Origin: Longimicrobiales bacterium
GTDB taxonomy: Bacteria; Gemmatimonadota; Gemmatimonadetes; Longimicrobiales; Gaopeijiaceae
Assembly: GCA_965203485.1 (NCBI GenBank)
Contig: OZ241892.1
Location: 2,432,001 to 2,496,000, forward strand
Direction: 5' to 3'
Length of the DNA: 64,000 bases
Under the pieces are notes generated by a model. That model searched no databases. It was given only the letters and a program-made list of their open reading frames with translations, and was not told the DNA's origin. The position numbers were made by a program, and so were the translations under genes. Of this stretch, positions 3,603 to 62,162 are shown piece after piece (position 1 is the first letter of the stretch; each line of letters opens with the position of its first letter).

Positions 3603-3820
3603 CTTGCAGTCTCCTCGACAATTCAATCCAAGGTTATAGGACACCGACGTCGCATGTGTGTCGCACGTGACATCAATACAATACGCCTCCAATTTCCGAA
3701 ATCGCGCTGGCTTCGTCATCGTCAAGACAACACTTTACGCCGTCATCGTACAGGGTCCCGTGTACGTCGCCGGTTCACATCCCGGCTCAATCAATCCGTC
3801 CTCCCTGCGAATCACCGTTC

Positions 3821-8722: not shown

Positions 8723-8740
8723 ACGTCGCTCGTCCTCCGT

Positions 8741-9640: not shown

Positions 9641-9677
9641 AAGCGTCGGGCTTGGAATGACGAGCGAGGCGCACATC

Positions 9678-9709
9678 AAATGATAACACGGCGGCGCGCA
9701 TGTTTTCGC
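9678..9709. repeat. 32-bp direct repeat, copy 1 (minus-strand TGnTATCAT extended -10-like motif)
   Basis: AAATGATAACACGGCGGCGCGCATGTTTTCGC; 30/32 identical to 12176-12207. Confidence 0.85.
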
Positions 9710-9739
9710 CCGAATCGCGCTTTGGCCGATGTTGAACGA

Positions 9740-9930
9740 GGGAACGGTCGAGCGCTCGATCGTGCGGCGCGACGGGGCACGGGTTGCGAGGAGTGGTTGC
9801 GCGAGTTGGCGCGGGCGTCGGGGATCGAGACGCCGACGCGCGAAGAGCTGGCGAAGCTGGACCGGAAGCGGTCGAAGAAGAGATCGAACGCGCAGTGGGT
9901 GCATCCGGGCGACCCGGAAGCGCAGCTACG
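9740..9930 (+). pseudogene. transposase fragment (IS1182/IS5-like)
   Basis: RSIVRRD../EEWLRELARASGIETPTREELAKLDRKRSKKRSNAQWVHPGDPEA resembles an internal segment of IS1182-type DDE transposases (family assigned from memory). Confidence 0.65.
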
Positions 9931-9989
9931 TGAGCGAGCCCGCCCGTTGCGGCGTACAAGGAGCCCAAGGCACAGTTGACGTCCCGCGG

Positions 9990-11186: not shown

Positions 11187-11216
11187 GCACAAATCGTAAA
11201 ATCCATTTTCAATCTA

Positions 11217-12073: not shown

Positions 12074-12175
12074 TACGCAAGTACACGAAGGCAACGAAGC
12101 CTCCGGCAACGTGCCCGAACCCGCGCCGGAGGCGATCTCGCGGCCCATCAAGGACATCGCGAGGGTCGGAGCCCA

Positions 12176-12207
12176 AAATGATAGCACGGCGGCGCGCATG
12201 CTTTCGC
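12176..12207. repeat. 32-bp direct repeat, copy 2
   Basis: AAATGATAGCACGGCGGCGCGCATGCTTTCGC, 2 bp from the NACHT gene stop codon. Confidence 0.85.
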
Positions 12208-12209
12208 GT

Positions 12210-15200
12210 TCATGTCGTTGCCGATGTCGCCTGGGCCGGAGGACGAGGGTCGCCGACATCGACCACGACCACGCCGATCCGGCCGCTTTGAGCCGGTGCC
12301 AGATTTTGCTTCAAGAGGCTTTCCAGCTCTTCCGCGGTCCGGGGCTTCCGAGTGTTCCCGGGTGGTGTCGTCGTGTCCTCGTCGCCGAACCAGAAGACGA
12401 GATAGATGCCGTGTCCGCCCGACTCGGGAATTCGGGTGTATTTGGCAACTAGTTGCTTGTCGATCGCGCTCCAAAGATCCCGGCTCCCGTTCCACTTGAC
12501 TTCCACGGGCACAGCATGGTCCCCGTACCGGCAAGAAATGTCCGCACGTGTCCCGTCCGAAGATGCGGATTCGATCTGCACGACGACATCTTCGGGCAAG
12601 CGCAGCTGAAGGTCCGACGCAAACGCGTCGCGGCACGCTTCTTCTGGGCGCGGCCTCTTCGGCTGTTTGTGCTGGTCCACATTCCAGTATTGCTTCCAGT
12701 CGCAGGTCGCGCCGTCGCGGATATTCCGGCCAAGAATCCTCATGCGATCTTCAACTAAGGCGGCAAGGTCCGCGACGTTCGCGGGCGTCTCGTCGCGAAG
12801 AACATCGCGAACTTGGACCACGCTGGGCACGCGGTACTCCGCTTTTCGGCGAAGAACGACCTGCTCGTCGCGAGCACGCTCGACGTCGTTGTGCCACGCT
12901 TCGACCGCATCGTCGTCCAGCAACGAACCAAGAGCTTCGCCCGCCTCCGGCGTCGGACTTTGCGCCAACACGCGCATCAGCCGCCTGATTACTTCTACTT
13001 CAATTGATTCCTCTGCGTACACTGGTCGAAACCGCCGGGCCAACGCCCGAAGCAACGTTGTCGCATGGGCAACATCGTCGGCTGTCCGTCCCGACCAAGG
13101 CAAGTCGTCCCGGTTCCGTGCCGTCGCCAAGAACTCGACCAAGTGCCGCGCTCGCGCGTTGCCACGGCCTGCCTCCACGAATTCGATGGCCGGAGACGTG
13201 AAGTCGCCCGGCGCCAAGAGCACTCCCGCCGCCAGCCATGTCGCCCTCTGGGCCGAGTCCATGCCTTTCGCCTCGATCCTATTACGGACGCGCTTTGCCA
13301 CTTCGTCCGGCACGTGACGGCTGGCCGCGACCAACATCCGCCGCAGCATCGCTACCTGGGAAAGATCGCAACGTGTCGGAAACACGTTGAGCAAGCGCGG
13401 CAACGCCAACTTCGCCACGCCGGCGGACGCGTCGTATAGCGCCGCGGGTGGGACCGGCTTCCCAGGCCATCCGGAACGAACGAAAGATCTGTGGACCTTG
13501 ACGAAGACGTCTGCCACATCGTCGGGACGGCTTTCCAGAGATCGACGGAACCACCACGGCTCCCAGGGGCTCCACGGCGGTTCGTACAAGAGATGGCACG
13601 CGACCGCCGTGCGCATCAACGACGGGTCGAGGTTGCCGAACGCATCGTGGTCGGTAATTGTCATGGCAATGCTCGCCAGAATCGGTCGCGCTATGTACCG
13701 TTCCCATCCGTTCTCGCACTCCTCTATCAGGTCATCAACGCCAGGAAGATCCCTTCGCTCCAGAATTCCACGCAATCCGATTCTCGCCCACTCCAGCACT
13801 TCGTGTTCTGCCACTTCGTGTTCCGCGTTCGTCTTCAAACCGCGATCGGACGCACCAGCCAGGAGTCGGTCGTCACTGTCTTCAGGAGATTTGGCTTTCA
13901 GGTGCGCCAAGTAGACCTTGGCCAGAGAGTGCAGCAACGGTAGCGGGGCTTGCCCGCGGCGCAAAGCGTTCTCGTGTCCTCGTGCCCAGTTCGTCAGATC
14001 GGCAAACCGCCCTCGATCCGCCTTGTGCTCCACGATGGGATTCGCTTCCTTCCTTCGCGCTTCCTGTTCGTTGTCGTCGCGTGCGATTCGATGCAAGTGA
14101 TCCACCAATGCTGCGCTACTCCCTGCAGCCTTCTCCATCGTCGGCAGCCACGTCGGCGGCAATCCACGCAGACGATGCGGCTGCACAGCCCACTCGACAA
14201 GCTCGCAGGCACTCTTCGGGTGCGTCGTGTGCATCTCCAATGCTCGCTCAAGACACCAATTCGGAAAGTCTGCCGGAAAAGCTCGGCCGAAGATCAGCAT
14301 TGAGAACTCTCGCTTCTCGAGTATCGAACCCGTGCTGTACTTCCGAAGGAACTCCAAGTAAATTGCGCGTTGCGCATCGGGATGGGCCGCAAACCAAAGC
14401 TTCACCGTCCGAATTGGACGGTTCGCGTTGCTCGGCGCGACGCCGTAGGTCGAAAAACCGAGTTCGCTGGCGTTCGTTATGACGGACCTGCAGAAACCAT
14501 CCGACGCACGTTCACTCCGTTCGTGTTGGTCGTGCCGCCACCCGGTTCTCGAATCGTAGGCCACGAACTTGATCCATCGAAGGAGATCGGACGCCGACAT
14601 GAGTTCGCCGCGCAACTCAACGGCGCGGGCGAGCAATCGCCACGGCAAAGCCGCCAGCGCGTTCGGCCAAGAACCTGTGGACTTGGACGGGTCTCGAGAG
14701 AGGACGTCCATAAGCACTGGTATGTCGTCGGAATCAGACTGCGACAAGAGCTTGTCTCGCCAGAACGTCGTGTAATAGCCACCCCGCGCGAAGGCCATAC
14801 GAGCACCGCTCCCGCGTGCCAAGTCTTCGTCGGATGCGTCCTTGAAGCTCTGAAAGCCGTCCAGGTAGTTCCATATTTTATTGGGTGGAATGCGACGCGG
14901 ATAAAGGTGGCCAAGCAGGGCGCCCCTTAGATCCCAACCCTCGTCGGAAACGCGCCCTTCCACCATATCGTCCAGCAGTTGCCGGAGCATCTCGTCTTCG
15001 GCCAGATGACCGGCCGCCCTTAGTGCGGCAAACCTGACGGAGTCCGGCCATGTCGCGTCTCGGGCGGCCGCGATCACCCTCTTGGCCATGTCGGGGCTCA
15101 CGCCGGGCGACATCGCACGCGGAAGCGCGCAATTCGTTGCAACGCCTTCCAACAAGACCTCTACAACGACCTGCGTGCCATGTGACCGGTCTTTGCCGTT

Positions 15201-43265: not shown

Positions 43266-48658
<5,393 letters not shown>

Positions 48659-48827
48659 GGGCCGAAACCTACGAGCCCGAGCGGCCCCGGGCGAGGCGGA
48701 TCGCAGGAAGCGGCGGCTTGGCGGCCGCGACACCGGATGCGTCTGGCGGACGCCAGGATCGATCCTCAAATTCGACCGGCCGGAAGACACGCAAGGGGAG
48801 CGATCGCAGAGGAGACGGGACCGACTC

Positions 48828-50588
48828 ATGGGCAAGACCAAAGCAAGGATGGTGCGCGGACAAGGACCGCGGACGCCGACGAGACGGGGCGCCGCGGCCC
48901 GGAGTCGCGATCGAGGCGCGACGCGAGGGCGTCGGAGCGCCCAGGGGAAGCGGCGGGGAGAGGCGCCGAGGGCCGCGCTTCCAGAGGGTGCGTTCGCCCG
49001 TCGCGCCGGTCCGCTCGGCACTTTGCCGCATGGCGCGAAGGCGCGGGCCGCGTTGCTCGGGGGCGCGTTCGCCCTGTCCGCCGCGGCGCCCGGCGCCGCC
49101 CAGACGTTCCCCACGGACGATCCGGTGATCCGCGCCATCTGGGCGGAGGGCATGACCAGCCGCAGCCAGGCGGAGGCGCTGGCGCAGGCGCTCGTGGACT
49201 CCATCGGTCCCCGGCTCATGGGCTCGCCGGCGTTCGCGCGGTCGGGCGACTGGCTGGCCGCCAACTACGAGCGCTGGGGGATCGACGTGGAGCGGCAGGA
49301 CTACGGCGCCTGGACCGGGTGGGACCGCGGCGTCACGCACGTCGATCTTCTGGCGCCGCGCGTCCGCACGCTGGAGGGCATGATCCTGGCCTGGAGTCCG
49401 GGGACGGGCGGAATTCCCGTCGAAGGAGACGTCGTGGCGTTGCCCGGGCTCGGCGGTGCGGCCGGCCTCGACACTTGGCTCCCGTCGGTGGCTGGCAAGT
49501 TCGTGGCGGTGTCGTTCGCGGAGCCCACCTGCCGCGAGGACCAGTCGTGGCAGGACCACGCGACCGAGGAGACGTTCCGGCGCATGACGCGGGCACGCGA
49601 CTCGGCCCGCTCGGCGCACCAGAACGCCTACGCCCAGTTCGCGCGCAGCGGCGGCTTCGCCCGTCTGGAGGAGGCCGACGCGCTCGGCGTCCTGACGGGC
49701 CGGTGGTCGCAGGGCTGGGGAGTGGACAAGATCTTCTCGTCGCCGACCGAGCGCATCCCGTCGGTGCACCTCTCGTGCGAGGACTACTCGCTGGTGCACC
49801 GGCTGGCGTCGAACGGGCAGGGGCCGAGAATTCGCTTGGCGGCCGAGGCGGAATTCCTGGGCGACGTGCCCGCCTTCAACGTGGTGGCGCGCATTCCGGG
49901 GACGGAGCTGCCGGACGAGTACGTGCTGCTGAGCGCCCACCTGGACTCGTGGGACGGCGCGTCGGGCGCCACCGACAACGGCACCGGCACGATCATGATG
50001 CACGAAGCCATGCGCATTCTGAAGACGGCCTATCCCAACCCTCGCCGGACGATTCTGGCCGGACACTGGGGAGGAGAAGAGCAAGGGCTCATCGGCTCGA
50101 CGGCCTTCGCCGCCGACAATCCGGGCGTCGTGGACGGCCTTCAGGCCGCGTTCAACCAGGACAACGGCACGTGGCGGATCGACTACATCCGAATGCAGGG
50201 CTTCCTGGGCGCGGGCAAGCACTTCGCGCGCTGGTTCGAGCAGATGCCGCCGGAGATCACCGGTCACATCGAACTCGACGTGCCGGGCGTGCCGGAGCGC
50301 GGCGGGTCCGACCACATGTCGTTCGTCTGCAAGCCCGCGCCTGGATTCCGCCTGCAGTCGAACTACCCCGACTACCGCCAGTACACGTGGCACACCAACC
50401 GGGACACGTTCGACAAGATCGTCTTCGACGACCTGCGCAACAACGCGACGCTAGCCGCCATGCTCGCCTATGGCGCTTCCGAAGACCCCGAGCGCGTGCG
50501 GGTCGTGCCGCGCGTCCTGCCCGCCGACGAGCGGACCGGACGTCCGGGAGCGTGGCCGCAGTGCCGTCCACCCCGCAGGAGCCGGTAG
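48828..50588 (+). CDS. M28-family peptidase (carboxypeptidase Q-like)
   Basis: DSIGPRL.GS, SAHLDSWD..GATDNGTG, GEEQGL, SDH, WHTNRDT; true start may be further downstream. Confidence 0.9.
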   Translation: MGKTKARMVRGQGPRTPTRRGAAARSRDRGATRGRRSAQGKRRGEAPRAALPEGAFARRAGPLGTLPHGAKARAALLGGAFALSAAAPGAAQTFPTDDPVIRAIWAEGMTSRSQAEALAQALVDSIGPRLMGSPAFARSGDWLAANYERWGIDVERQDYGAWTGWDRGVTHVDLLAPRVRTLEGMILAWSPGTGGIPVEGDVVALPGLGGAAGLDTWLPSVAGKFVAVSFAEPTCREDQSWQDHATEETFRRMTRARDSARSAHQNAYAQFARSGGFARLEEADALGVLTGRWSQGWGVDKIFSSPTERIPSVHLSCEDYSLVHRLASNGQGPRIRLAAEAEFLGDVPAFNVVARIPGTELPDEYVLLSAHLDSWDGASGATDNGTGTIMMHEAMRILKTAYPNPRRTILAGHWGGEEQGLIGSTAFAADNPGVVDGLQAAFNQDNGTWRIDYIRMQGFLGAGKHFARWFEQMPPEITGHIELDVPGVPERGGSDHMSFVCKPAPGFRLQSNYPDYRQYTWHTNRDTFDKIVFDDLRNNATLAAMLAYGASEDPERVRVVPRVLPADERTGRPGAWPQCRPPRRSR

Positions 50589-50724
50589 CGGCCATGCCGC
50601 GCCGACGAGAAGCGCGGCGCAGCAACCAGCGTGGCGGCCGCCGCCGCCGAGAGCGCGAAGCTGGAGCCTGGAGCGGAACGATCGCGCGGTCGTGGCGACG
50701 AGCGGCGCCGACGGCCGCGCGCCC

Positions 50725-51273
50725 CTACGGAAGCCCTTGCGTCCGCAACGTCAAGCTTCCCGCCCCGTCCAGGGTCAGCAGGGCGACGTCGCCCACGGCG
50801 AGGTCGATCTCGCCGTCCCATGCGTAGCGCGCGACGACGCCGTCGCCGGGCTCCGCGTCCGCCGCCAGCACGGCCTCGAAGCGCACCGAAAGGGCCATGC
50901 GCCCCGGCTTGGCGGGCAAGTCGCGGAACACGTAGACGGGGCGGTCGCTCCGCACGCCCTTCGGAAACACGGTGTCGCGGACGACGGGGCGGCCGTCGAC
51001 AGCCACGTCCAACGCGAAGGGCGCCAGGGTTCGCGTGCATTCTTGTGGATTCCGCATGTGAACGGGCAGGGCCGCCAGCTCTTCGTCGGTGCGAGTCCGG
51101 CATGCCTCGACGGGCACGCCCGCAATTCGCCACGATAGGCGAATCAGGGCGCCGCCGCCGCCAAAGTCGGTCGGCACGCGGGAAAGCCAAGCGACGCCGC
51201 CGGTCATCGCAATGGCCAGAAGGGCGGCCGCGGCCCGGCGAACGATCAAGGCGAAGTCTCCTGCGTCTCGCAT
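50725..51273 (-). CDS. membrane-anchored hypothetical protein with Cys pair
   Basis: N-terminal TM, then LIRLSWR..EACR...HMRNPQECTR; overlaps the end of the cytochrome b fusion gene. Confidence 0.7.
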   Translation of the reverse strand: MRDAGDFALIVRRAAAALLAIAMTGGVAWLSRVPTDFGGGGALIRLSWRIAGVPVEACRTRTDEELAALPVHMRNPQECTRTLAPFALDVAVDGRPVVRDTVFPKGVRSDRPVYVFRDLPAKPGRMALSVRFEAVLAADAEPGDGVVARYAWDGEIDLAVGDVALLTLDGAGSLTLRTQGLP

Positions 51274-52889
51274 TCCGCGCCCACGGCGAAGTCCCGTTCC
51301 GCGAGCGCCGCCTCCAGCGCCGACATCTGGGCCCGAAACCGCTCCACCTCGTCCCGCAGCACGCCGGCTTCGCCCGCGCCGGCGTAGACCACGTCGATCC
51401 GCCTGCGGTCCACGCGGTCCTGCAACTCGGCTTCGCGCCCATTGTGGATGCGCTCGTTGAACCACTTGACGCCCTCGCGGCTTCGGCAGTCCCTCGGAGG
51501 GCAGGCCGCCACGACTACGCCTCCAACGCCTGCCCGAACCAAGTACTCGATCACGGACGTGTGGAGGTTCCCCACGCACCCGACCGGAAAGACCTTCGCG
51601 AAGCCCGCCGGCCGGCGCTCCGGCGGTCCCTTCCCGCGGGCGGACGCCGCGCCGCCGATGCGGCCGGCCGCTCCGTGCATGCATCCCACCATCACCACGT
51701 CGCCCGGGCCGGGCCGCGCTTCGGCCAGGAACTCCTGCACTCGGCCCAGCTGGTCGCGCCCCGTGCGACCCGGCGGTCCCACGCCCATGGGCGCGCACGA
51801 TCCGGCGCAGACGCCGCAGCTCACGCACTTGGCCGGATCGACCCAGCCGACCAGGCCGTCCCGCCCGTCGTCCCGCTCGACCATGGCGACGGCCTCGTAG
51901 GGACAGTCCTGGAAGCACTGCTCGCAACCCGTGCAGTAGCGCGGGTTCACCCACGACGGGGGCGGCGCCTTCTCCGCGCGCGGCTTGGTCAACACCGGAA
52001 CCAGAAGAGCCGCGGCGACCATTGAACCGCCCGCGACCCAGATCCAGCCGGCCGCCGCCGCTCGGGCCGCGGGCAACCAGAAGCCGTAGACCCAGTCCAC
52101 CGGCGCCGCTGGGGGGAGCTTCAGCAGGTCGGCTTCGGGACCCAGCGGGGGCGGCCACGCCACGGCCGTCATCGCAAGGAGGCCGACCGTGCCCCACAAC
52201 AGCGGTTTGGGCGGAAGCAGCTGCGCCCGGGCCAGCCGCGACACGTGCACCCAGAGAAAGAGGGCGATCCCCACGGGCAGGGCGATATGGGCGAACAGGT
52301 TCATGAAGAAGAAGGCGTTCGGCACGGGAGCTTCGCCCGTGAACGCGCGGCCCAGCGGTTCGGAGAAGACGGGCAGCGCGTCCAGGAGACGGGCTCCTTC
52401 AACCGCGAGGACTTGGCCGTGAACGTCCCAAGCCATGACGTATCCGGTCCATCCGCACACGAAGAGAATGCCGAGGAGCATGCCCCCCGAGACCCAGGCC
52501 AGCGCCCGCGGGCCCCACGTGCGGCGCTGAACCAGCATCCGAAGGCCGTGGAGGACCGCCGCCAGGACCGCCAAGGCCGACGCGTAGCGGTGCAATCCGC
52601 GAATCCAGCGCCCGCCCCACCACTGGGAGTCGATGGCCGCCACCGACTCGTAGGGCGCGCCGACCCGGTAGAAGAGGAGGAGGTACACGCCCGTCGCTAG
52701 GAGGACGACGAAGCAGGCCACCACCAGCGCGCCGGAGTGGTAGAGCGGGTTGAAGCGCCACGTGTAGAGCGCGTTGAACGCCGCGTCGAGGCGGGACAGC
52801 GCTCGAACGCCCAAATTCCCTGCCGCCTGCAGACTCCCCGCGGGCCGCCTGCCGAGGCGCCCGCCTTGCGTCCCTTCGCGGTTGGTCAT
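51246..52889 (-). CDS. cytochrome b (b/b6 N-terminal fold) - 2x[4Fe-4S] ferredoxin - MvhD/FlpD-like [2Fe-2S] fusion
   Basis: Two His pairs 14 residues apart (GLHRY..LHG; AHIA..VHV); CTGCEQCFQDCP and CVSCGVCAGSC; VGC..PVGCVG..ACPPRDC. Confidence 0.85.
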   Translation of the reverse strand: MTNREGTQGGRLGRRPAGSLQAAGNLGVRALSRLDAAFNALYTWRFNPLYHSGALVVACFVVLLATGVYLLLFYRVGAPYESVAAIDSQWWGGRWIRGLHRYASALAVLAAVLHGLRMLVQRRTWGPRALAWVSGGMLLGILFVCGWTGYVMAWDVHGQVLAVEGARLLDALPVFSEPLGRAFTGEAPVPNAFFFMNLFAHIALPVGIALFLWVHVSRLARAQLLPPKPLLWGTVGLLAMTAVAWPPPLGPEADLLKLPPAAPVDWVYGFWLPAARAAAAGWIWVAGGSMVAAALLVPVLTKPRAEKAPPPSWVNPRYCTGCEQCFQDCPYEAVAMVERDDGRDGLVGWVDPAKCVSCGVCAGSCAPMGVGPPGRTGRDQLGRVQEFLAEARPGPGDVVMVGCMHGAAGRIGGAASARGKGPPERRPAGFAKVFPVGCVGNLHTSVIEYLVRAGVGGVVVAACPPRDCRSREGVKWFNERIHNGREAELQDRVDRRRIDVVYAGAGEAGVLRDEVERFRAQMSALEAALAERDFAVGAECETQETSP

Positions 52890-52903
52890 ATTATCATGAT
52901 AAT
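52890..52903. promoter_or_regulatory. perfect 14-bp palindrome, candidate Rrf2 operator
   Basis: ATTATCATGATAAT in the 38-bp gap between divergent starts 52889 and 52928. Confidence 0.6.
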
Positions 52904-52927
52904 CAGACGAAAATCGATGGCAACCCC

Positions 52928-53368
52928 ATGATCCTCTCGCAGACCGCAGTGTACGCCCTTCGAGCGATGCTTCACTTGGCCGAGCGCCCGAACGACCACC
53001 CGGTGCGCGTGGACGACATCGCGTCCGCGCTGGACGTTCCGCGCAACTACCTGTCCAAGATCCTTCACGTCCTGGCCCGGCGCGGCCTGCTCCGGTCCGC
53101 AAGGGGGCCCGGCGGCGGATTCAGCCTGGCCCGTTCGCCCGGCCGCACGACGCTGCTGGAAGTGGCCGGCCACTTCGACGACATGAACCGCGAGCGTTGC
53201 CTGCTGGGCCGCCCCGAGTGCAAGGACGACGACCCGTGCCCGGCGCACGGGCAATGGAAGGACGTCGCCGCCGCTCTGCATGCGTTCTTCCGCAAGACGA
53301 CCATCGCCGATCTAGCCCGCCGCGGGACGCCGACTCGCCCGCGCCACCAACCGGAGGCCGACTCGTGA
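52928..53368 (+). CDS. Rrf2-family transcriptional regulator (3 Cys)
   Basis: YALRAM..IA..VPRNYLSKIL..SARGPGGGF; C-x6-C-x5-C. Confidence 0.93.
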   Translation: MILSQTAVYALRAMLHLAERPNDHPVRVDDIASALDVPRNYLSKILHVLARRGLLRSARGPGGGFSLARSPGRTTLLEVAGHFDDMNRERCLLGRPECKDDDPCPAHGQWKDVAAALHAFFRKTTIADLARRGTPTRPRHQPEADS

Positions 53369-53544
53369 CCGACCAAGACCGCACCGCCCCAAGGGCGCCG
53401 GACCCCGCCGACGTTCCGTTCTTCCAGCGACTGTACGACCGGCCCTTTCTGCTGCTGGCGCTGGGCTTGGCCGTCATGCTGGTCCTGTTCACCGCTTGGG
53501 GGCTGTGGGAGGTGCTGACGCTCCCCCAGGCCACCTTGCCGTAA
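53365..53544 (+). CDS. single-TM small subunit (subunit IIa-like)
   Basis: GTGA overlap; QRLYDRPFLLLALGLAVMLVLFTAWGLWEV; lies directly before subunit II. Confidence 0.7.
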   Translation: MTDQDRTAPRAPDPADVPFFQRLYDRPFLLLALGLAVMLVLFTAWGLWEVLTLPQATLP

Positions 53545-53559
53545 CGAGAAGGACGCAGA

Positions 53560-54186
53560 ATGTACCAAACAGGCATCACTCCCCCGCAAGGCGTCTGGTG
53601 GAAGCCGGCGCACAAGTCCGAGAAGGCATGGGCCACCGTGGCCTTCGTGTGGTGCATGGTGCTCTTCGCCATGATGCCGGTCTGGCACCTTCGCGGAGGA
53701 CAGAATCCATCGGGAATTCGAGCCAAGGTGGAACCGGCCGCCTTCCAAACCAGGGTCCAGGAGTTCATCCGCGACTATCAGGTAGGCACCGACAGAGGCT
53801 TTCCGGTCGTGGCGCCGCCGCCGGGAAGCGACGTGTACATGATTGGCCAGATGTGGTCGTGGCTACCGGTGGTGCAGCTCGAGAAGGACGCCGAATACAC
53901 GTTGCACCTGTCGTCGCTGGACGTGAACCACGGCTTCAACCTGTATCCGTTCAACGTCAACTTCCAGGTGGTTCCGGGATACGACTACGGCCTTCGCATC
54001 GTGCCGACCGAAGCCGGCGAATACGGCGTCGTATGCAACGAATTCTGCGGAGTCGGCCATCACTTGATGGTGGGCAAGGTGATCGTCACGGACCCGGAGA
54101 GCGACGGCGACGCGGGCAGGCCCGGCGACGGAGGGACGAACGGGGCGTCCCAGTCGGCCGCCGAGGGGGAGGCGGGCGCGCGATGA
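53560..54186 (+). CDS. heme-copper oxidoreductase subunit II with CuA
   Basis: One TM; DVNHGF; CNEFCGVGHHLM. Confidence 0.92.
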   Translation: MYQTGITPPQGVWWKPAHKSEKAWATVAFVWCMVLFAMMPVWHLRGGQNPSGIRAKVEPAAFQTRVQEFIRDYQVGTDRGFPVVAPPPGSDVYMIGQMWSWLPVVQLEKDAEYTLHLSSLDVNHGFNLYPFNVNFQVVPGYDYGLRIVPTEAGEYGVVCNEFCGVGHHLMVGKVIVTDPESDGDAGRPGDGGTNGASQSAAEGEAGAR

Positions 54187-55904
54187 GCAATCCGTTCCGC
54201 AAGTGCCCGACCACCGGGCTCCGCGTGCACAAGGACGCCGACGCCCTGATCAAGGCCAACGCAGTGGCCGCTACGGTCGCGTTGCTGATCGGCGGCGTCA
54301 CGGCGGTGCTGGTGCTGCTGACGCGGTGGCAGGCCGTTCATCTGCTGAGCGACGTGTGGTTCTACCGCATCCTCACCGTCCACGGGATGAACATGCTGAT
54401 CTTCTTCATCCTGTTCTTCGAGATGGCGGTCCTGTACTTCGCGTCGGCAACGCTGCTCAACTCCCGCGTGGCCGCCCCGAAGACCGGGTGGACCGCGTTC
54501 GCTCTGATGCTGGCGGGCGCCGCAATGGTGGAGTGGGCCATGTTCACGGGCAGGGCCGACGTCTTGTTCACTTCCTACGTGCCGTTGAAGGCGCACTGGA
54601 GCTTCTACCTGGGCGTCATCCTCTTCGCCGTGGGCGCGATCCTCGTGACGGCGATCTTCTTCGCGACGCTCGTGGTCGCCAAGCGGGAGAAGACGTATTC
54701 GGGGTCCGTGCCCCTGGTGACCTTCGGCGCCATGACCGCGGCGATCATCGCGGCCATCACGCTCCTCCACGGCGCGGCGATCTACATTCCCACCTTTCTC
54801 TGGTCCTTGGGCCTCATGGAGGTGGACCCGCAGGTGTACCGGCTGGTCTGGTGGGGGCTGGGCCACTCCTCGCAGCAGATCAACGTCGCCGCGATGGTGG
54901 CGATCTGGTACTTGCTGGGCGGACTTACCGTCGGCGCCGTGGTCGTGAACGAGAAGATCAGCCGCACCGCGTTCGTCTTGTACATCCTGTTCATTTCCAT
55001 GGCGTCGGCGCACCACCTGCTGGTGGATCCAGGATTCGGTCCGTCGTGGAAGATCGTGAACACGTCATACTTCATGTACATGGCTGTGCTGGCGTCCATG
55101 CTCCACGGCTTCACCGTGCCCGCCGGCATCGAGCTTGGAATGCGGCTCCGGGGCTTCACGCAAGGGGTGTTCGGCTGGCTTCGGCGCGCGCCCTGGCACG
55201 ACCCGGGCTTCTCGGCGCTGTGCCTTTCCGTGGTCGTGTTCGGATTCGTGGGCGGGATAACCGGCGTGACCTTCGGCACCGAGCAGATCAACATCATCGC
55301 GCACAACACCCTGCGAATCCCCGGCCACTTTCACGCTACCGTCGTCAGCGGCACCGCGATGGCCTTCATGGGCGTCACCTACTACGTGATTCCGCTGATC
55401 TTCCGAAAGAGGATCGCCTTCTACCGCCTAGCAAAGTGGCAACCATGGGTGTTCAGCGCCGGCATGCTCGTGTTCTCGATGGCGATGACCTTTGCCGGCA
55501 CCTTCGGAGTCCCGCGCAGACATTGGGACGTGACCTTCTCGGGGGCGCCCTTCGGCGTGGAATACTCCGCCGCCGTGGACTTGCTGTTCGCGGTCATGGC
55601 GGCCGGGGGCTTGGTCGCGGCGGTGGGCGGCGCCATGTACATCGTGGTGACCGTTTCGTCGGTCTTCTTCGGCAAGCCGCTGGGCGACGAAACGACTCGA
55701 TCGGCTCTTGCGGGCGCCGTGCCGCCGGGCCTCTACACGCGACCCTTCACGGAACTCCCCGCCGTGCAGAGCAAGCTCGAGGAACACGGCAAGCTGGGGA
55801 TGATGCCCGGCACAATGATCCTCGTCGGCGTGTTCATGCTCGCCTTCGTCGTCTACTACTTCGCCAACTGGAAGCTCCTCTCGGCGATGTGGCTGATCGG
55901 GTGA
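54183..55904 (+). CDS. heme-copper oxidoreductase subunit I lacking active-site Tyr; probable eNOR-type nitric oxide reductase
   Basis: All six His ligands present (TVHG, LGHSSQQ, AHH, GHFH), but Gln sits at the His+4 Tyr position. Confidence 0.85.
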   Translation: MSNPFRKCPTTGLRVHKDADALIKANAVAATVALLIGGVTAVLVLLTRWQAVHLLSDVWFYRILTVHGMNMLIFFILFFEMAVLYFASATLLNSRVAAPKTGWTAFALMLAGAAMVEWAMFTGRADVLFTSYVPLKAHWSFYLGVILFAVGAILVTAIFFATLVVAKREKTYSGSVPLVTFGAMTAAIIAAITLLHGAAIYIPTFLWSLGLMEVDPQVYRLVWWGLGHSSQQINVAAMVAIWYLLGGLTVGAVVVNEKISRTAFVLYILFISMASAHHLLVDPGFGPSWKIVNTSYFMYMAVLASMLHGFTVPAGIELGMRLRGFTQGVFGWLRRAPWHDPGFSALCLSVVVFGFVGGITGVTFGTEQINIIAHNTLRIPGHFHATVVSGTAMAFMGVTYYVIPLIFRKRIAFYRLAKWQPWVFSAGMLVFSMAMTFAGTFGVPRRHWDVTFSGAPFGVEYSAAVDLLFAVMAAGGLVAAVGGAMYIVVTVSSVFFGKPLGDETTRSALAGAVPPGLYTRPFTELPAVQSKLEEHGKLGMMPGTMILVGVFMLAFVVYYFANWKLLSAMWLIG

Positions 55905-55920
55905 CCGCGGGACGGCGCCG

Positions 55921-56841
55921 ATGATCCTCCGCCCCCAGGACAAATGGCCCGCCGGGGCCGTCGCGTTCGTCCTGGCCGTGTCCGCCGCGTGGTGGGGATT
56001 CGCGTTGTTCGCGGTCCCCGGCGCGCCCGAGTGGCTGGACCGCGCCCGCGCCGTCTGCTTCAACATCACCGAGAGCGGACTGCCGGACGCGAAGGGCTGG
56101 CTGCTGCTGGTCGGCCAGCCGCCCGCAATGCTGCTGGCGCTGTACACGGGATGGAGCGGCGAAGTGCGCGACACCTGCCGCCACTTCGCCCGCTCGCCCG
56201 CCGGACGGCGTCTGATGGCGGGCGCGGGCGTGACGGTCGCGGCCTTCCTGGCCGTTGCCGCCGCGCGAGTGGCCAGCCTTCGCCTCCCGCCGCCCGCGCT
56301 GGCGGCGGGGCTCGCCGCAAGCGCCGACGAACCCCTGCCCGACACCTACCCGCGCCTCGACCGCCCGTGGCCGCGGACGGACGGCTTGGTGGACCAGCGC
56401 GGCGCCTCCTTCACGCTGGAGAGCCTCGGAGGGCGGCGGGCCTTCGTCACCTTCGCGTTCGGCCACTGCGCGACGATCTGCCCCGTGGTCGTGCGCAACT
56501 CGCTGGAGGCGCGGCGATCCGCCCGGGCCCGGCAAGCGGCCGGCGCCTCCATGGCGGTCGTGGTATTCACGCTGGACCCCTGGCGCGACACGCCCAGCCG
56601 GTTGCCGGCCCTCGCGGAGCGCTACGGACTGGACCCCGCACGCGACTTCCTCGTCGGAGGCGCCCCCGAAGCCGTGACGGCCGTCTTGGACGCCTTCGGC
56701 ATGGCCCACCAGCGCGACGCTCGCACTGGCGACGTCGCGCATCCGCCGCTGGTCTACCTAGTGGAGGACGACGGAACGTTGGCGTACGCGTCCTCCGGCA
56801 CGACGGCCCATCTCGTGCAGCTGTCGGCGAGGTTGCGGTAG
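55921..56841 (+). CDS. SCO-family copper chaperone with N-terminal membrane extension
   Basis: FGHCATICP, TLDPWRDTP, VAHPP. Confidence 0.88.
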   Translation: MILRPQDKWPAGAVAFVLAVSAAWWGFALFAVPGAPEWLDRARAVCFNITESGLPDAKGWLLLVGQPPAMLLALYTGWSGEVRDTCRHFARSPAGRRLMAGAGVTVAAFLAVAAARVASLRLPPPALAAGLAASADEPLPDTYPRLDRPWPRTDGLVDQRGASFTLESLGGRRAFVTFAFGHCATICPVVVRNSLEARRSARARQAAGASMAVVVFTLDPWRDTPSRLPALAERYGLDPARDFLVGGAPEAVTAVLDAFGMAHQRDARTGDVAHPPLVYLVEDDGTLAYASSGTTAHLVQLSARLR

Positions 56842-56844
56842 GCC

Positions 56845-57255
56845 CTACTCTCCGCCTGCTTCTTCCCTCCGCGACGCCATCAATCCGTCCAGAGAGTACT
56901 TCCCGGCGCCGCTGGCCGAGAAGAACAGCCAAACGAAGCAGTAGAACGCGGCGAGCTCGCCCCGGTTCACGACGGGCCAGAACCCGTTCGGCGCGTGGAC
57001 CATGAAGTAGGCCACGGCCATCTGGCCGGACAGGAGGAAGGCCACTGGCCGCGCAAACAGCCCCAGCATCATGAGCAGGCCGCCGACAAGTTCCAGGATG
57101 CCGGCGGCGCCCTGAAGGCTGAGGAAGGCATCCACCTGATCTCGGCCCAGCACGCCGAAGACCTTCTGAAGGCCGTGCTGCATGAACAGGAAGCCCGCGA
57201 CCACGCGGAGGGCGCTGAGGGCGATCCCGTAGAATCCGCCGCGGTTGGTGTGCAT
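56845..57255 (-). CDS. DoxX-family membrane protein
   Basis: LRVVAGFLFMQHGLQK..GILELVGG..SGQMAVAYF..H..GAGKYSLD. Confidence 0.9.
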   Translation of the reverse strand: MHTNRGGFYGIALSALRVVAGFLFMQHGLQKVFGVLGRDQVDAFLSLQGAAGILELVGGLLMMLGLFARPVAFLLSGQMAVAYFMVHAPNGFWPVVNRGELAAFYCFVWLFFSASGAGKYSLDGLMASRREEAGGE

Positions 57256-57392
57256 CTTGGCGCTCTCTCCGGCGATTGGGGGCTGTCGGCCGGCGCACCT
57301 CCGCGCCAGCTCGCACGACGCAAACGTGTAGGATAGGGCGCCGCGCGGGCGCCCGCCAGCGCGAGGCCCCTTGCGCGGACGCTCGCCCTCCT

Positions 57393-59726
57393 TCAGAACG
57401 CCTTCAGGTACGTCAGCTTGACCACGCCGGTGCGCCAGCGCCAGCGGTCGCGGGGCAGGTCGTCTTCGGGGAAGCGCGGGTCCAGCGCCTCGCCGGTCAA
57501 GTATCCGGTGTCGAGCACCACGAACAAGTCGCTGCCCGGAGTGTGTATCCAGTCGATGCGGACGTTGGCGCGGATCAGGTTCGACACGTCGTCCCACTGG
57601 ACCAAGGCGTTGGCGAAGAGGGAGCGGTTGACCGCGCCCAGGACGGTCATGCTGAAAAGGCGCGTCGCGAAGTCGCCGTCCGCGACGGGCAGGCTGACGT
57701 CGTTCCACGTGTAGTCGCCGCCGAGCGTCAGGTGCGGGCCGGTCTTCCACTGGCCGCCCACCGCGATGCCGGTGCGCGTGCCGCTCCAGAACCCGCCGGA
57801 CGAGAGCGCGCCGCGGGCCGACAGGCGGCGGCTGTCGTTCGTGCGGAAGCGGAAGTCGAAGGTCGTGAAGGCGTAGTCGCCGGCGGCGAGTTCGCGGCCC
57901 TGGATGCGGGCGGAGGTCCGCAGGGCTTCGGTGCGGCGGCGCAGGTTGACCATCGCCCAGTCGCCGGTCTGGAACGTCAGCATGCTGTGGGAGAGGATGC
58001 TGGCGCTCTGCTTTTCGCCGTCCAGGCCCTGGATGTACTGGCCGTTGACGGCCGCCACGAGCTGGCGGGCCCAACGGCTTCCCTCGAAGCGCGGAAAGGC
58101 GGCGGCCGCGGCCGTGTAGCGCCGCATGTCGCGGCGGCGCACGAACCCCAGCGCGGGGTCGAACTCCCGGGGCACCTGGGTGAAGCTCGCGCCTCCCGAC
58201 AGGACGCTGTTGCCGAGGTCCACTTCCAACGACCCCGCGGCGGCCGATGGAGCCGCGTTCCGGAACGAGCGCGCGGCCCAACCGACCACGGAGCTCGAGC
58301 CCCCGAAGCGCAATTGCGCGTCGAAGCCGGCTACCCGGTTGGTCAGGCCGTCGGCGTCGAGCGACGTGAAGATGCCCCCGACGGTCGCGCGGGGGAACGG
58401 ATCGGCCCGCAACCGGAGAACCGAGTTGACTCCGCCCGGCCTCGCGCGTCCCTCCGCGTCCCCCGCGTCCTCGGTGAGAAGGCTGAGGGCTCCGACGGAC
58501 ACCGGACCCGCTTGGCCCGTGAGCCGCGCGCCTCCGGCGATGGGGTTGGCGATGCCCACGCGGCGGCTGAAGAAGACCTCCGTCTCCCGCGAGTCGCCGA
58601 AGTCGAAGAGGCCCGCGCGCTCGAGGAAGAACTCGCGCTTCTCCGGGAAGAAGAGATCGAAGCGCGTGAGATTGATCTGAACGTTGTCCGCTTCCACCTG
58701 GGCGAAGTCGGGGTTCACCGTGGCGTCCAGAGTGAGGTTGGACGTGATAGAGTACTTGAAGTCCAGGCCGACCTCGTTCAGCGTCCGCGTGACGCCTTCG
58801 CCGCCGCCCGCGCCGCCTTCGGCCGTGCGTCCGGCGATCGCGAACGGCTTGGCCTCCATGTAGCGCCCGCGCCGCAGGTCCTCGAGACCGGCCAGCGTAG
58901 CGTACTGCGACACCTGGGTGAGGCCCGAGCGGAACTCCTGGCTCACATGGGGCCAGTAGACGAACTCGTTCTTCCGCCTGATCGTGCGCTCCACGAGGAT
59001 GCCCATCGTCGGCGCCCGTTCGTCGGAGAACCGAATGGTCGTGAAGGGAATCGCCGCCTCGACGATCCAGCCGGTCGCGGTGACGCGGGCCTCGCTCTCG
59101 TACACGCCTTCCCAGTTCCAGTCGGCCAAGGTCATCGACTCGTCGGTGATGAGCGCGTCGCCCTGGGTGCCGAAAGGGTTGATCTCGAAGATGTAGGCAT
59201 TGCGCCGGTCGTGGTACGTGTCGAGGCCGATGCGGATGTTGTCGTCCTGGTCGATGCGGCCCTCGCGGTGGAGGATGCTGCGACGGACGGCGCCCGGGTC
59301 CGAATCGTGCAGCACGAGCGCGAAGTAGAGGTTGCGCTCGTCGAAGGCCACGCGAAGCTCGGTCCGCTCCGAGGCGGCGGCGCCGTCCACGGGGGCGCGC
59401 TGGCGGAAGTCGGTGACGGGAACCGCCGCTTGCCAGAAGGGCTCGTCGAGGACGGCGTCGATCGCCGGGGGCTCGCCGGCGCGAACGGCCCGCACGATCG
59501 CCTCCGGGCCCGGCGGGGGAGGCGCGGCCTGGGCGGACCGATCCTGCGTCTCGGCGCTCGCGGCGCCCAAGGCTACCGGCCAGGCGCCGATCAGCATCGC
59601 GGCGAGGAGCGCCGGGGGACGCGTTCGCGAGAACGCCGGGCCGTCGGCCGTCCGTCGTCGCGACGGCGCCCGGCCGACAAGGCGCCGCAGGACCGAAGCG
59701 GCCGAGACGTCGCCCCCGGCCCGCAC
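57393..59726 (-). CDS. CBM9-like / DUF5916 outer-membrane protein
   Basis: IDAVLDEPFW, W.VEAAIPF, TVNPDFAQVEAD..NLTRF.LFFPEKREFFLE; C-terminal aromatic residue; start uncertain. Confidence 0.85.
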   Translation of the reverse strand: MRAGGDVSAASVLRRLVGRAPSRRRTADGPAFSRTRPPALLAAMLIGAWPVALGAASAETQDRSAQAAPPPPGPEAIVRAVRAGEPPAIDAVLDEPFWQAAVPVTDFRQRAPVDGAAASERTELRVAFDERNLYFALVLHDSDPGAVRRSILHREGRIDQDDNIRIGLDTYHDRRNAYIFEINPFGTQGDALITDESMTLADWNWEGVYESEARVTATGWIVEAAIPFTTIRFSDERAPTMGILVERTIRRKNEFVYWPHVSQEFRSGLTQVSQYATLAGLEDLRRGRYMEAKPFAIAGRTAEGGAGGGEGVTRTLNEVGLDFKYSITSNLTLDATVNPDFAQVEADNVQINLTRFDLFFPEKREFFLERAGLFDFGDSRETEVFFSRRVGIANPIAGGARLTGQAGPVSVGALSLLTEDAGDAEGRARPGGVNSVLRLRADPFPRATVGGIFTSLDADGLTNRVAGFDAQLRFGGSSSVVGWAARSFRNAAPSAAAGSLEVDLGNSVLSGGASFTQVPREFDPALGFVRRRDMRRYTAAAAAFPRFEGSRWARQLVAAVNGQYIQGLDGEKQSASILSHSMLTFQTGDWAMVNLRRRTEALRTSARIQGRELAAGDYAFTTFDFRFRTNDSRRLSARGALSSGGFWSGTRTGIAVGGQWKTGPHLTLGGDYTWNDVSLPVADGDFATRLFSMTVLGAVNRSLFANALVQWDDVSNLIRANVRIDWIHTPGSDLFVVLDTGYLTGEALDPRFPEDDLPRDRWRWRTGVVKLTYLKAF

Positions 59727-59902
59727 CGCGTGAACACGAATCGCGCATCCACGACGGCGTCGGCCAGGGAACGCCGCGCCGCCGTCGCCGCCTCCGGCCG
59801 ACCCCGAAAGAACGCGCGCGGCCCGCCCGGAACGGCGACGGCCATGAGCGGGCCCACGCACCGCCGCCTCCGGCCGGCCTCGCGAGTCGCGAATCGGCGT
59901 CC

Positions 59903-60742
59903 CTAAGCGGCGCAAGCCGGCTTGACGGCCTGGATCACTCCCCCGTGAACGGACTCGGCGAAGGCGCGCGCCTCGGCCGCGCGGACGGGATCGTCCTTCA
60001 CGACCGCCTGGACCTGGGGGTCGGAGAAGATGTGCTCCGACGGGTACGGACTGCCCTTCTCTACGGAGATCTCGGCGAAGCCGACCGCCTCCAAGTCGCG
60101 TTCGTACTCGGACAAGGGGACCGGAAGGCACCCCACCATCGCGTCCTTCGCGGAGGCGACGAACTCGGGCGCCCCACGGTCCGACACCAAATCGGAGATC
60201 ATCAGCCTGCCGCCCGGCTTGAGCACGCGCAGCGCCTCGGCCAGCGCCCTCGGCCGGTCGGCGGACAGGTTCAGCACGCAGTTCGAGATGACGGCGTCAG
60301 CCACGCCGTCGGCCAGCGGCAACGCCTCGATTTCTCCCAGCCGAAACTCCACGTTCTCGGCCCCGGCCTTGGCCGCGTTGGATCGCGCTCGCTCGACCAT
60401 CTCGGGCGTCATGTCCACGCCCACGACGCGGCCCTCCGGGCCCACGTTCCGTCCCGCCAGAAAGCAGTCGAAGCCGCCCCCGGACCCCAGGTCCACTACC
60501 GTCTCCCCAGGCGAAAGCGACGCCAGCGCGACAGGGTTGCCGCATCCCAACCCCAGGTTGGCGCCCTCGGGCGCCGCCGCCAACTCGCTCTCGTCGTACC
60601 CCACGGCCAAGCCGATCTCCGACGCCGACCCGCCGGCGCAACCGCAACCGCTCTCCGGTCCGCAACATCCGTCGCTCTCCGTCGCGCTGCGCGCGTACCG
60701 CTCCCGCACGGCCCGGCGCACTTCGTTCGCGGCAATCCCCAT
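59903..60742 (-). CDS. arsM: arsenite S-adenosylmethionine methyltransferase
   Basis: N-terminal CC, NLGLGCGNP, DLGSGGGFDC, ISNCVLNL, VGC; GAGGAG RBS. Confidence 0.85.
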   Translation of the reverse strand: MGIAANEVRRAVRERYARSATESDGCCGPESGCGCAGGSASEIGLAVGYDESELAAAPEGANLGLGCGNPVALASLSPGETVVDLGSGGGFDCFLAGRNVGPEGRVVGVDMTPEMVERARSNAAKAGAENVEFRLGEIEALPLADGVADAVISNCVLNLSADRPRALAEALRVLKPGGRLMISDLVSDRGAPEFVASAKDAMVGCLPVPLSEYERDLEAVGFAEISVEKGSPYPSEHIFSDPQVQAVVKDDPVRAAEARAFAESVHGGVIQAVKPACAA

Positions 60743-60980
60743 GTCGTCCTCTCCTCTTCCCGTGTCCAGCCCGGCGAACCGGCGGCCCGGCCCTATTGCC
60801 GGCTCGCCGCCCAGCGGCATTGCCCGGCACGTCGCGTCGCCAACCGGTGGCGGGGCAGGTCTCAGCCGGCGCCCGGGGCCGCGACACGCCGCGCGGCCGC
60901 CACCTTGATGACGCTAGGTTGGACGATAACGTTTCGGCTCGGCCGAACCAACCGATCATGAATGAAGACGGAGAAGCCGC

Positions 60981-62162
60981 ATGGACTGGGGGGACTGGAA
61001 GGAATACATCGACCGGATCGGGTCGCGCCTCGAACGGGAGCGCGAGGACCTCCGGCAACGGGCGCGCCAAGCTGGCGACGAGCTCGACAAGATGGAGGAG
61101 AGGTGGAAGACGTTCGTGTCGCGCGTCTCGGAAATCGAGTTCTCCGAAGTGACCGACGACGTGCGAGCGACGGCGGAAAACTTGGCCGCGGAGCTGCGCG
61201 AGGGATACTCGCGGTTGCGCGACACGATCGGCGAAGCCGGCAAGGCCGGGGCACCGGACCCCGACGGCGGAGGGGGCGCACCGCGCGAGGCCGAACCAGC
61301 GTCGAGGCCGCCGACCGCCGCCGGGCCGGACGAGGGGGACGGGCGGACGGACGCGCCCGATGCCGCCTACACGATGGGCTACGGCGAGGAGTTTCGCCGC
61401 GTGCTGGAGCGTCGCAGCGCCGAGACGCACGCCGCCGACTTGCTGCCGCTGCTCCGCAAGGGCATGCGCGTCCTGGACTTCGGGTGCGGCACCGGGTCGA
61501 TCTCGGTGGGGCTCGCGAAGGCGGTCGAGCCGGGAGAGCTGCACGGAATCGACATGGAAGAGTCGCAGATCGAGATCGCCCAAGCGGCGGCGAAGGCGGG
61601 CGGGCACGACAACGCCGCGTTCCAGGCCGGCGACGCCGCCCAGCTGCCGTTCGAGGACGAAAGGTTCGACGTGGCCCACTGCAACGCGGTGCTGATGCAC
61701 GTCCCCGGCACGCAGGCGGTTCTGGCGGAAGTCATGCGGGTGCTCCGCCCCGGCGGGATCCTGTCGGTGCGCGAACTCAACACGCCCTCGTCGTTCATCG
61801 AGCCCGGATTCGGCGAACTCGAATCCGCTTGGGACACATTCGCGGGGCTTCTGGCGGCCAACGGCGGGCATCCGCGGATGGGGCGCGAAATCGCCGGGAC
61901 GCTCCGGGCGGCCGGATGGTCCGACGTGCGGGCGAACGGGTCGTTCGAGCTGTTCCGTTCGGCCGACGACCGCGTGTTCTTCCATCGCTTCGTGAGCGAG
62001 TGGTTCTTCGCGGAGGACACGGTGAAGGCCGCAACCCAGCACGGCTTGGCGTCGGCCGAGCGCCTGGACGCTTGGCGGAATGCGCTGGACCGGTGGAGAG
62101 ACCACCCGGGAGCGCTCGCGGGCTTCGCATGGGGAGGGGCGACCGCGAAGAAGCCCGGCTGA
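60981..62162 (+). CDS. class I SAM methyltransferase with N-terminal helical domain
   Basis: VLDFGCGTGSI, GID, LPFEDERFDV, RVLRPGG; about 85-aa coiled-coil plus low-complexity linker at the N-terminus. Confidence 0.85.
   Translation: MDWGDWKEYIDRIGSRLEREREDLRQRARQAGDELDKMEERWKTFVSRVSEIEFSEVTDDVRATAENLAAELREGYSRLRDTIGEAGKAGAPDPDGGGGAPREAEPASRPPTAAGPDEGDGRTDAPDAAYTMGYGEEFRRVLERRSAETHAADLLPLLRKGMRVLDFGCGTGSISVGLAKAVEPGELHGIDMEESQIEIAQAAAKAGGHDNAAFQAGDAAQLPFEDERFDVAHCNAVLMHVPGTQAVLAEVMRVLRPGGILSVRELNTPSSFIEPGFGELESAWDTFAGLLAANGGHPRMGREIAGTLRAAGWSDVRANGSFELFRSADDRVFFHRFVSEWFFAEDTVKAATQHGLASAERLDAWRNALDRWRDHPGALAGFAWGGATAKKPG

Follow-up and report, generated by a model that had tools for sequence, protein, structure and literature searches.

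The stretch of DNA analyzed here (the window: 64,000 nucleotides of contig OZ241892.1 from the Longimicrobiales genome GCA_965203485.1) contains, between positions 50725 and 56841, an operon for an eNOR-type nitric oxide (NO) reductase and, facing it on the minus strand, a two-gene unit whose predicted product is shown by sequence comparison to be a membrane-spanning chain of redox cofactors tied to this reductase. The chain combines a diheme cytochrome b, ferredoxin and MvhD-like iron–sulfur (Fe–S) domains and a membrane-anchored partner domain. Judged by gene content, one eNOR subtype has this module as a near-obligate companion, and the Fe–S form of the cytochrome b module is the rule for this subtype in several phyla. 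On translation, all seven open reading frames (ORFs) of the cluster were stop-free, and the layout drawn up in an initial annotation of the window was confirmed, including the fusion domains and the 38-bp gap that separates the divergent start codons of the fusion gene and rrf2.

The cytochrome b–ferredoxin–MvhD fusion

The fusion gene (51246-52889, minus strand) encodes a protein of 547 amino acids (P0001) composed of a diheme bc-type cytochrome b (residues ~26-300), a ferredoxin segment with two [4Fe-4S] clusters (314-366) and an MvhD-type [2Fe-2S] domain (398-531). Pfam matches support each part, namely Cytochrome_B at residues 47-219 (E 1e-14), Fer4 at 314-366 and FlpD/MvhD at 431-525 (E 1e-9), the latter with a score above its cut-off and with the four-cysteine [2Fe-2S] set present. 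Ligand conservation was scored in 134 aligned relatives (clustering at ≤50%): heme ligands His100 and His114 are kept in 132/134 and His201 and His215 in all 134, while each of the eight ferredoxin cysteines is found in 132 to 134 sequences. In the MvhD domain, Cys403, Cys438 and Cys463 are present in 131/134 and the fourth ligand, Cys468, in 108/134.

The structure model of the fusion (predicted local distance difference test, pLDDT, 92.5; predicted template modeling score 0.91) has bc1/b6f cytochrome b as its top Foldseek matches, and both model and matches indicate that the whole cytochrome b has been retained, its subunit-IV part included. Among solved structures, the ferredoxin part is best matched by C-terminal domains of HdrA (HdrA 578-630), and NCBIfam HdrA2 aligns to residues 291-527. 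The SoxC model also matches (E 2e-11), with 43.5 bits against a cut-off of 740. The family is large, with 2489 clusters at E≤0.001 (8000 candidates scored) and 384 representatives at E≤1e-30. Throughout, the motif of the quinol-oxidizing (Qo) site is degenerate: it reads VDWV here, its first position is L, I, V or T across relatives, and the proline of the P[ED]WY type is lost. The position that we take, from bc1 numbering, to be the equivalent of G143 is occupied by L, V or I in 122/134 relatives.

The fusion is the only bc-type cytochrome b of the host genome and the sole match to an MvhD-domain profile in it. HdrA was not found among 52 locus neighbors scanned. A credible Rieske motif occurs in only one of 97 loci (L025, ~5 kb off), the other 96 being without one, and neither Rieske nor CxxCH motifs were found in any frame of window positions 44001-62000; the three Rieske-domain genes of the host all lie far from the cluster. 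The initial annotation had reported the cluster as devoid of Rieske, cytochrome c and ctaA/ctaB genes. The first two absences hold, while that of ctaA/ctaB is uninformative, since the genome has both elsewhere (a CtaA-family gene at C1:34080-34901, a ctaB homolog at C1:401638-402456) and, of 93 related loci, 21 include ctaB and 8 ctaA. From the topology expected of cytochrome b, itself a prediction of six helices, the Fe–S domains would face the cytoplasm and the sandwich of the partner domain the periplasm.

A partner domain split from the C-terminus

The partner gene (50725-51273, minus strand; P0002, 182 amino acids) overlaps the fusion gene by 28 nt. It encodes a single N-terminal hydrophobic helix and a predicted periplasmic beta-sandwich with a hairpin of the form C58...P-x-[HN]-M-R...C79, and it has no Pfam or NCBIfam family match. 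Among 150 representatives of the fusion family, 105 are at least 620 residues long, and 86 of these long relatives carry a P0002-like C-terminus (E<0.001), which shows the two minus-strand genes to be a single protein in two pieces. That the split stems from a frameshift or an error of assembly was rejected, as the partner forms a separate frame in 60 of the 74 loci with a partner match; it is fused in 11 and stands behind a paralog of the fusion in 3. The "membrane-anchored Cys-pair protein" of the initial annotation therefore does have its membrane helix and cysteine pair, but it is a split-off fusion domain rather than a standalone protein, and the pair looks structural.

Indeed, C58 and C79 are both present in 61/64 sequences and both absent in 3/64, never singly, which suits a structural disulfide. 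Position 72 is His in 41/64 and Asn in 17/64; Met73 is kept in 61/64 and Arg74 in 62/64. The model (pLDDT 93.8) consists of the helix and the beta-sandwich. In a VIA comparison its best Z was 6.7, to generic transthyretin/Ig-like sandwiches, with none at 8 or above; Foldseek gave no match at E≤0.001, and the top Atlas matches are unnamed. No match was thus found that would mark the partner as a Rieske protein, a cupredoxin or another redox protein of known fold, which does not show a new fold. A hemerythrin-domain gene lies directly 3' of the partner gene in eight loci (L077, L079, L081, L083, L085, L087, L093 and L132), followed in two of them by a monoheme cytochrome c gene.

The reductase is a standard eNOR

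The eNOR of Rhodothermus has been characterized by five markers, Q245, Y256, S318 and H321 of subunit I and E21 of subunit II (PMC11214002, Dataset S1). Here, subunit I (54183-55904, plus strand; heme ligands His67, His382 and His384, metal ligands His228, His277 and His278) has Gln232, four residues past His228 and invariant in 35 aligned copies, in place of the cross-link tyrosine, and the channel residues Y243, S305 and H308, likewise invariant, stand at the offsets of R. marinus Y256, S318 and H321 (Q+11, +73 and +76). Subunit II (53560-54186, plus strand), matched by COX2/CoxB models of Pfam and NCBIfam, has the channel residue E21 and a complete CuA site (H124, C159, E161, C163, H167, M170), invariant in 26 aligned copies. 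The nearest solved sequences to subunit I are ba3-type B-family oxidases (E ~1e-51), in line with B-family descent. By all five published markers the enzyme is thus an ordinary eNOR, with NO reduction as its presumed activity, and not the "divergent eNOR-like" reductase first described, the markers being at the same spacing. Such enzymes were counted in 547 GTDB genomes, with a metagenome frequency close to those of cNOR and qNOR (PMC11214002, Table 1).

Linkage of the module to eNOR

In the host phylum, the fusion was found in 68 of 301 genomes and a subunit I match at E≤1e-60 in 93. Every one of the 66 genomes whose subunit I match reaches ≥67% identity also has the fusion, whereas the four with a 46-48% match all lack it; the remaining 23 of the 93 have only 31-35% matches and were left out of this classification. 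Two genomes have the fusion but do not belong to the 66: G294, whose subunit I is cut at a contig end, and G126, which has a decayed copy. The decayed cluster of G126 (L022:8363-10469) has frameshifted sco and rrf2 genes, a fusion cut to its last third and an intact-looking partner, with no eNOR subunits. The closest named relatives (77-82%) are Longimicrobiales metagenome-assembled genomes. In a second phylum, sampled as 151 genomes centered on G301 and including G302 (Methylomirabilia), eNOR occurs in 18 genomes and the fusion in 16, all within the 18 and 14 of them on the same contig. Of the two eNOR genomes without it, one breaks at a contig edge and the other has the other eNOR subtype.

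Around 93 loci anchored on the fusion, an eNOR subunit was found in 53 and other cluster genes only in 15, with ≤1,036 bp of upstream sequence in the other 25. Where at least 2.5 kb upstream is available, an eNOR subunit is present in 40/41 loci, and with at least 6 kb in 27/27. A search of 452 genomes turned up no case of an intact fusion lacking eNOR. When gene trees were compared for 34 pairs of fusion and subunit I, 16 of the 18 fusion splits with good support were shared and none was in conflict, close kin among these pairs not being independent. The initial annotation had raised the prospect of homologs occurring mostly without eNOR-type genes, and this is not what the 452 genomes and the loci show. 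As to the role it offered, a dedicated conduit or a maturation or repair factor, co-occurrence and trees agree with a redox accessory that is dedicated to the CuA enzyme and inherited along with it, and leave the choice between the two to the arguments given below. A cultured carrier exists, Defluviimonas sp. SAOS-178_SWC, which has the whole cluster on plasmid NZ_CP156080.1; for Magnetospirillum, both the eNOR and the fusion have been published.

Extended clusters and the second eNOR subtype

Loci of the proteobacterial type add ctaB, a "scaffold" protein with a heme-copper fold and a paralog in which cytochrome b is joined to Fer2, FAD and NAD-binding domains. This paralog occurs in 6/93 loci, and its best NCBIfam matches are the oxygenase reductases BenC, MmoC and AntC, enzymes of a type that oxidizes NAD(P)H. 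It lies beside the fusion at L082:5735-7675, L088:5754-7694 and L092:7813-9726, and, since the fusion and the paralog share a single partner gene, a heterodimer is suggested. Gene order at L082 and L088 is the same as in the published Ferrigenium eNOR operon. The scaffold gene (motif WGGGH; L082:8199-9611, L062:12004-13323, L070:461-1885, L073:13982-15373, L123:4284-5627) is found in many eNOR clusters; its product keeps the heme histidines and the first metal histidine, lacks the metal histidine pair and could be a heme-only chaperone. The host genome has neither this gene nor the FAD/NAD paralog.

A NuoF-like gene sits between two fusion copies at L070, and a NuoF fragment lies upstream of the fusion at L098. 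In the former locus, the interval 6446-12552 holds a fusion with fused partner, the NuoF-like gene, the second fusion copy and an ORF resembling a stand-alone MvhD. The second eNOR subtype has the motif QQ[IV]NL, mostly with GHG (L018-L021, L127, L133 and L134). One such eNOR, on a Thermus thermophilus plasmid, adjoins rrf2, DUF542 and a nirK-like gene and carries the annotation of a cbb3 or ba3 oxidase.

Possible direction of electron flow

The reading that we favor, at somewhat less than even confidence, is that the module is a wire from cytoplasm to periplasm which delivers electrons to eNOR. A cytoplasmic reductant, either ferredoxin or NAD(P)H by way of a flavoprotein, would reduce the MvhD/ferredoxin chain, and electrons would then cross the membrane through the two b hemes to its outer face, where the helix and hairpin of the partner would hold the module against eNOR. 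The enzyme would receive electrons for turnover or to keep its metal centers reduced under NO. Input would be supplied in proteobacterial clusters by the paralog with its own NADH module and, in the present host, by a partner encoded elsewhere, and Rrf2 would repress both operons from one operator. Flow toward eNOR is favored by the NADH-type paralog, the NuoF neighbor, the degeneracy of the Qo motif and the lack of a Rieske protein. The complex prediction with subunits I and II that the initial annotation had called for was run for the partner and is a weak indication of contact. It placed the partner on both subunits with a score of 0.60, against 0.00 for the best of three controls; at least 87% of contacts recurred between runs, and the partner pLDDT was at least 79. 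The mark set for such scores is reached by 116/157 solved and 2/215 mismatched pairs, but it is reached with a score of ≤0.60 by only 18 of the 157 solved pairs and by both mismatches.

Several observations weigh against this reading. Since the small single-helix protein of the operon was left out of the prediction, the helix of the partner may simply have filled a vacant slot. There is no evident carrier to link the outer heme with CuA, as His72, Met73 and both cysteines of the partner can each be lost. In the fusion, Asp265 at the Qo position is kept in 125/134 relatives, and the host has genes resembling alternative complex III (ACIII) as well as c-type cytochromes that could already feed CuA. 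Seven copies of the QQ[IV]NL subtype are without the module (five by whole-genome search, two, on Thermus and Thermomicrobium plasmids, by neighborhood and plasmid search), so that it is not universally required for eNOR; the rooted subunit I tree, with its one distant outgroup, does not resolve whether they lost it or never had it. The purified Rhodothermus enzyme had two subunits and only a modified heme a and turned over with N,N,N',N'-tetramethyl-p-phenylenediamine and ascorbate. Finally, the MvhD cluster of Hdr is described as passing electrons to FAD (PMC13518236), which would also fit electron flow out of the membrane.

Some of these observations suit a maturation factor, which we consider possible and clearly less probable than the wire to eNOR. 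The module would then give reducing power for building the enzyme, through Cu(II) or thiol reduction for Sco and CuA or through heme A synthesis, and not for its turnover. In co-directional clusters the fusion gene most often comes directly after sco, ctaB is found in 21 and ctaA/cox15 in 8 of the 93 related loci, the paralog is of the oxygenase-reductase type and the purified eNOR had two subunits; moreover, a membrane [4Fe-4S] protein, CcoG, has been described as a cupric reductase in cbb3 oxidase assembly (PMC8267372). However, some eNORs that carry the same markers and have a CuA subunit do without the fusion, and the host, whose genome has a single cytochrome b of this family, encodes its only further heme-copper enzyme, an A-family oxidase, at a locus without a fusion-type gene. 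Family scans (Pfam, NCBIfam) also show no sequence relation between CcoG and the fusion.

The retention of a complete cytochrome b, with Asp265 conserved as above and Trp154/Asp155 in 132/134 relatives, suits a Rieske-less complex III, an unlikely reading and one that we place below maturation. Quinol would be oxidized at the Qo-like site, with one electron going to eNOR and the other through hemes and Fe–S clusters to NAD+ or ferredoxin, the process being driven by NO reduction. The partner resembles a Rieske protein in layout (membrane anchor and outer domain), HdrA/MvhD wiring terminates at a flavin, and the idea is close to the supercomplex with NAD+ reduction proposed for Ferrigenium (Becker et al., 2026). 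Yet the partner has no evident high-potential cofactor and the Qo motif is degenerate. Reduction of NAD+ by menaquinol against the membrane potential is, in addition, steeply uphill, and it is not obvious why reverse flow would be needed in a host with complex I and many carbohydrate and peptide catabolic genes.

Conserved acidic residues on the Qo side and the ACIII-like cluster of the host would also be compatible with an inducible quinone reductase, which would pass electrons from the cytoplasm to quinone at the Qo-like site and so supply eNOR indirectly, through ACIII and cytochrome c; this is improbable, as it leaves the invariably linked periplasmic domain and the weak predicted contact with eNOR unexplained and complex I already performs the job. 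A co-regulated stress gene working independently of eNOR is very improbable, given the lack of any intact fusion without eNOR and the congruent trees, even if 7 of the 52 neighbors scanned have a hemerythrin gene after the partner and stress genes thus gather here.

It may also be, doubtful as this is, that eNOR of this subtype ends a new respiratory assembly built on a bc-type cytochrome b without Rieske protein, either as a direct NAD(P)H or ferredoxin wire bypassing quinone and cytochrome c or by splitting quinol with NO-driven reduction of NAD+ or ferredoxin. If true, the quinol-splitting form would amount to a bifurcation of electrons that is based on quinone and involves no Rieske center. 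So far, only artificial donors have been used in eNOR assays. Should the majority of eNORs rely on the module, its direction decides between energy conservation, dissipation in NO detoxification and reverse electron flow, and it bears on N2O production and nitrate-dependent Fe(II) oxidation.

Regulator and candidate operator

The regulator gene (52928-53368, plus strand) encodes an Rrf2-family protein (Pfam Rrf2, E 2e-31) with an Fe–S ligand set C-x6-C-x5-C-x2-H, this three-cysteine-plus-histidine motif being present in 22/22 related copies. It passes only the Rrf2 superfamily cut-off and falls below those of both IscR (E 2e-20; 72.8 vs 207.55 bits) and NsrR (E 5e-10; 39.5 vs 182 bits). The 38-bp gap holds the sole match in the window to the palindrome TCATR-N4-YATGA (52886-52899, with AT-rich flanks at 52883-52902), a new conserved element and candidate Rrf2 operator that overlaps the fusion start codon and a putative -10. 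In the loci of discovery it is exact in 14/18 with rrf2 between the two units and 2/8 without; in 20 out-of-sample genomes, it is exact in 8/14 with rrf2 and 0/6 without (shuffle mean 0.01 of 20) and, with one mismatch allowed, present in 10/14 and 1/6. Its conservation merely as holder of the start codon was rejected, as its distance from the coding frame differs between loci. The motif is unlike the site described for RisR (PMC9973013).

The only promoter-like site in positions 50400-57100 (shuffle mean 0.2) is a sigma-70-like -35/-10 consensus match at 52896-52923 on the minus strand, which is directed at the fusion gene and overlaps the palindrome; because its -10 ends 7 nt before the ATG, the fusion transcript may be leaderless. 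Two further loose palindrome matches in the genome, against 1.4 expected, give no sign of a wider Rrf2 regulon. The fusion and eNOR operons appear to be regulated together. The initial annotation had proposed co-regulation under nitrosative stress: its first half is backed by the way the palindrome tracks the rrf2 gene, but nitrosative control fits less well with a protein that scores nearer to IscR than to NsrR.

Host context and other features

In the host genome, which is 95% complete, NirK, NirS, NosZ, NrfA, NarG and NapA were all without a match over cut-off. As the host shows no nitrite or N2O reductase, it probably uses the system for NO scavenging rather than for completing denitrification. 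A triheme cytochrome c gene lies upstream of the host A-family oxidase operon (G000:C1:3469981-3475623, L017). A formate dehydrogenase alpha gene (G000:C1:900642-902525, L130) contains one in-frame TGA, probably encoding selenocysteine.

The gene of the small single-helix protein (53365-53544, plus strand) precedes that of subunit II in related loci too; its product has no family match in the Pfam scan and, from gene order and B-family descent, is probably the counterpart of ba3 subunit IIa. The operon ends with a Sco/SenC copper chaperone (55921-56841, plus strand; Pfam SCO1-SenC, E 8e-20) carrying an N-terminal extension of two hydrophobic helices. A DoxX-like membrane protein gene (56845-57257, minus strand) converges on sco and was rejected as a cluster member, with matches in 0/93 loci. 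Elsewhere in the window, GC content falls to 0.51-0.57 at positions 2001-6000, against ~0.69 in the rest, a possible acquired island.

Comparison with known systems

The fusion architecture, held to be undescribed in the initial annotation, was in fact named in 2014 as the PDWF-FeS clade, comprising cytochrome b, 4Fe-4S and MvhD domains (Kao and Hunte, 2014; PMC4122944). The members described in Magnetospirillum magneticum AMB-1 as well as Turneriella parva share this architecture and have no Rieske gene in the cluster, and a sister form with fused ferredoxin and flavin oxidoreductase was reported alongside them. The module here differs in its VDWV motif, of which only the Asp is kept across the 134 relatives, and the accessible text of that account gives no function, eNOR link or periplasmic partner domain. 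An instance in an eNOR operon has also been published: in Ferrigenium straubiae, two "bc1 chain C-like" genes, whose products were detected in the proteome, encode cytochrome b with Fe–S and cytochrome b with Fe–S, FAD and NADH domains (bioRxiv 10.64898/2026.01.22.701106). From gene order, we infer that the fusion is orthologous to the Ferrigenium gene. These genes were termed "rather unusual" and proposed as a marker of Ferrigenium-dominated communities (Becker et al., 2026), whereas we find the Fe–S form as a rule with this eNOR subtype, across several phyla.

As to the enzyme, no difference was found from the eNOR family as described, which has the same five markers, CuA subunit II and B-family descent; an accessory module is not mentioned in the accessible parts of that description (Murali et al., 2024; PMC11214002). 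Our literature search, with most subscription papers outside its reach, found no functional study of the module. The core idea is not new, but it is made testable by the general rule of eNOR linkage, the finding that the partner is a split domain, the control class without the module and the operator. A scattered remark thereby becomes a rule that can be tested, for which eNORs lacking the module provide a natural negative class and for which a cultured carrier and a candidate operator are at hand.

Among better known systems, the cytochrome b of bc1 and b6f complexes shares the fold, the four heme histidines at 14-residue spacing and the subunit-IV-like part; in contrast, the module has no Rieske or c1 partner, a degenerate Qo motif and a fused cytoplasmic Fe–S chain. 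With HdrA it shares the C-terminal ferredoxin plus MvhD arm, a likeness that extends to QmoB/QmoC, but it has no FAD domain and sits on a bc-type cytochrome b, and the Hdr or hydrogenase partner of HdrA/MvhD systems is missing from the cluster. Precedents for redox proteins dedicated to a single heme-copper enzyme exist on both sides: SoxABCD of Sulfolobus, in which a B-family oxidase is associated with the cytochrome b homolog SoxC, which works with a Rieske protein, and CcoG, a membrane Fe–S protein that has no hemes.

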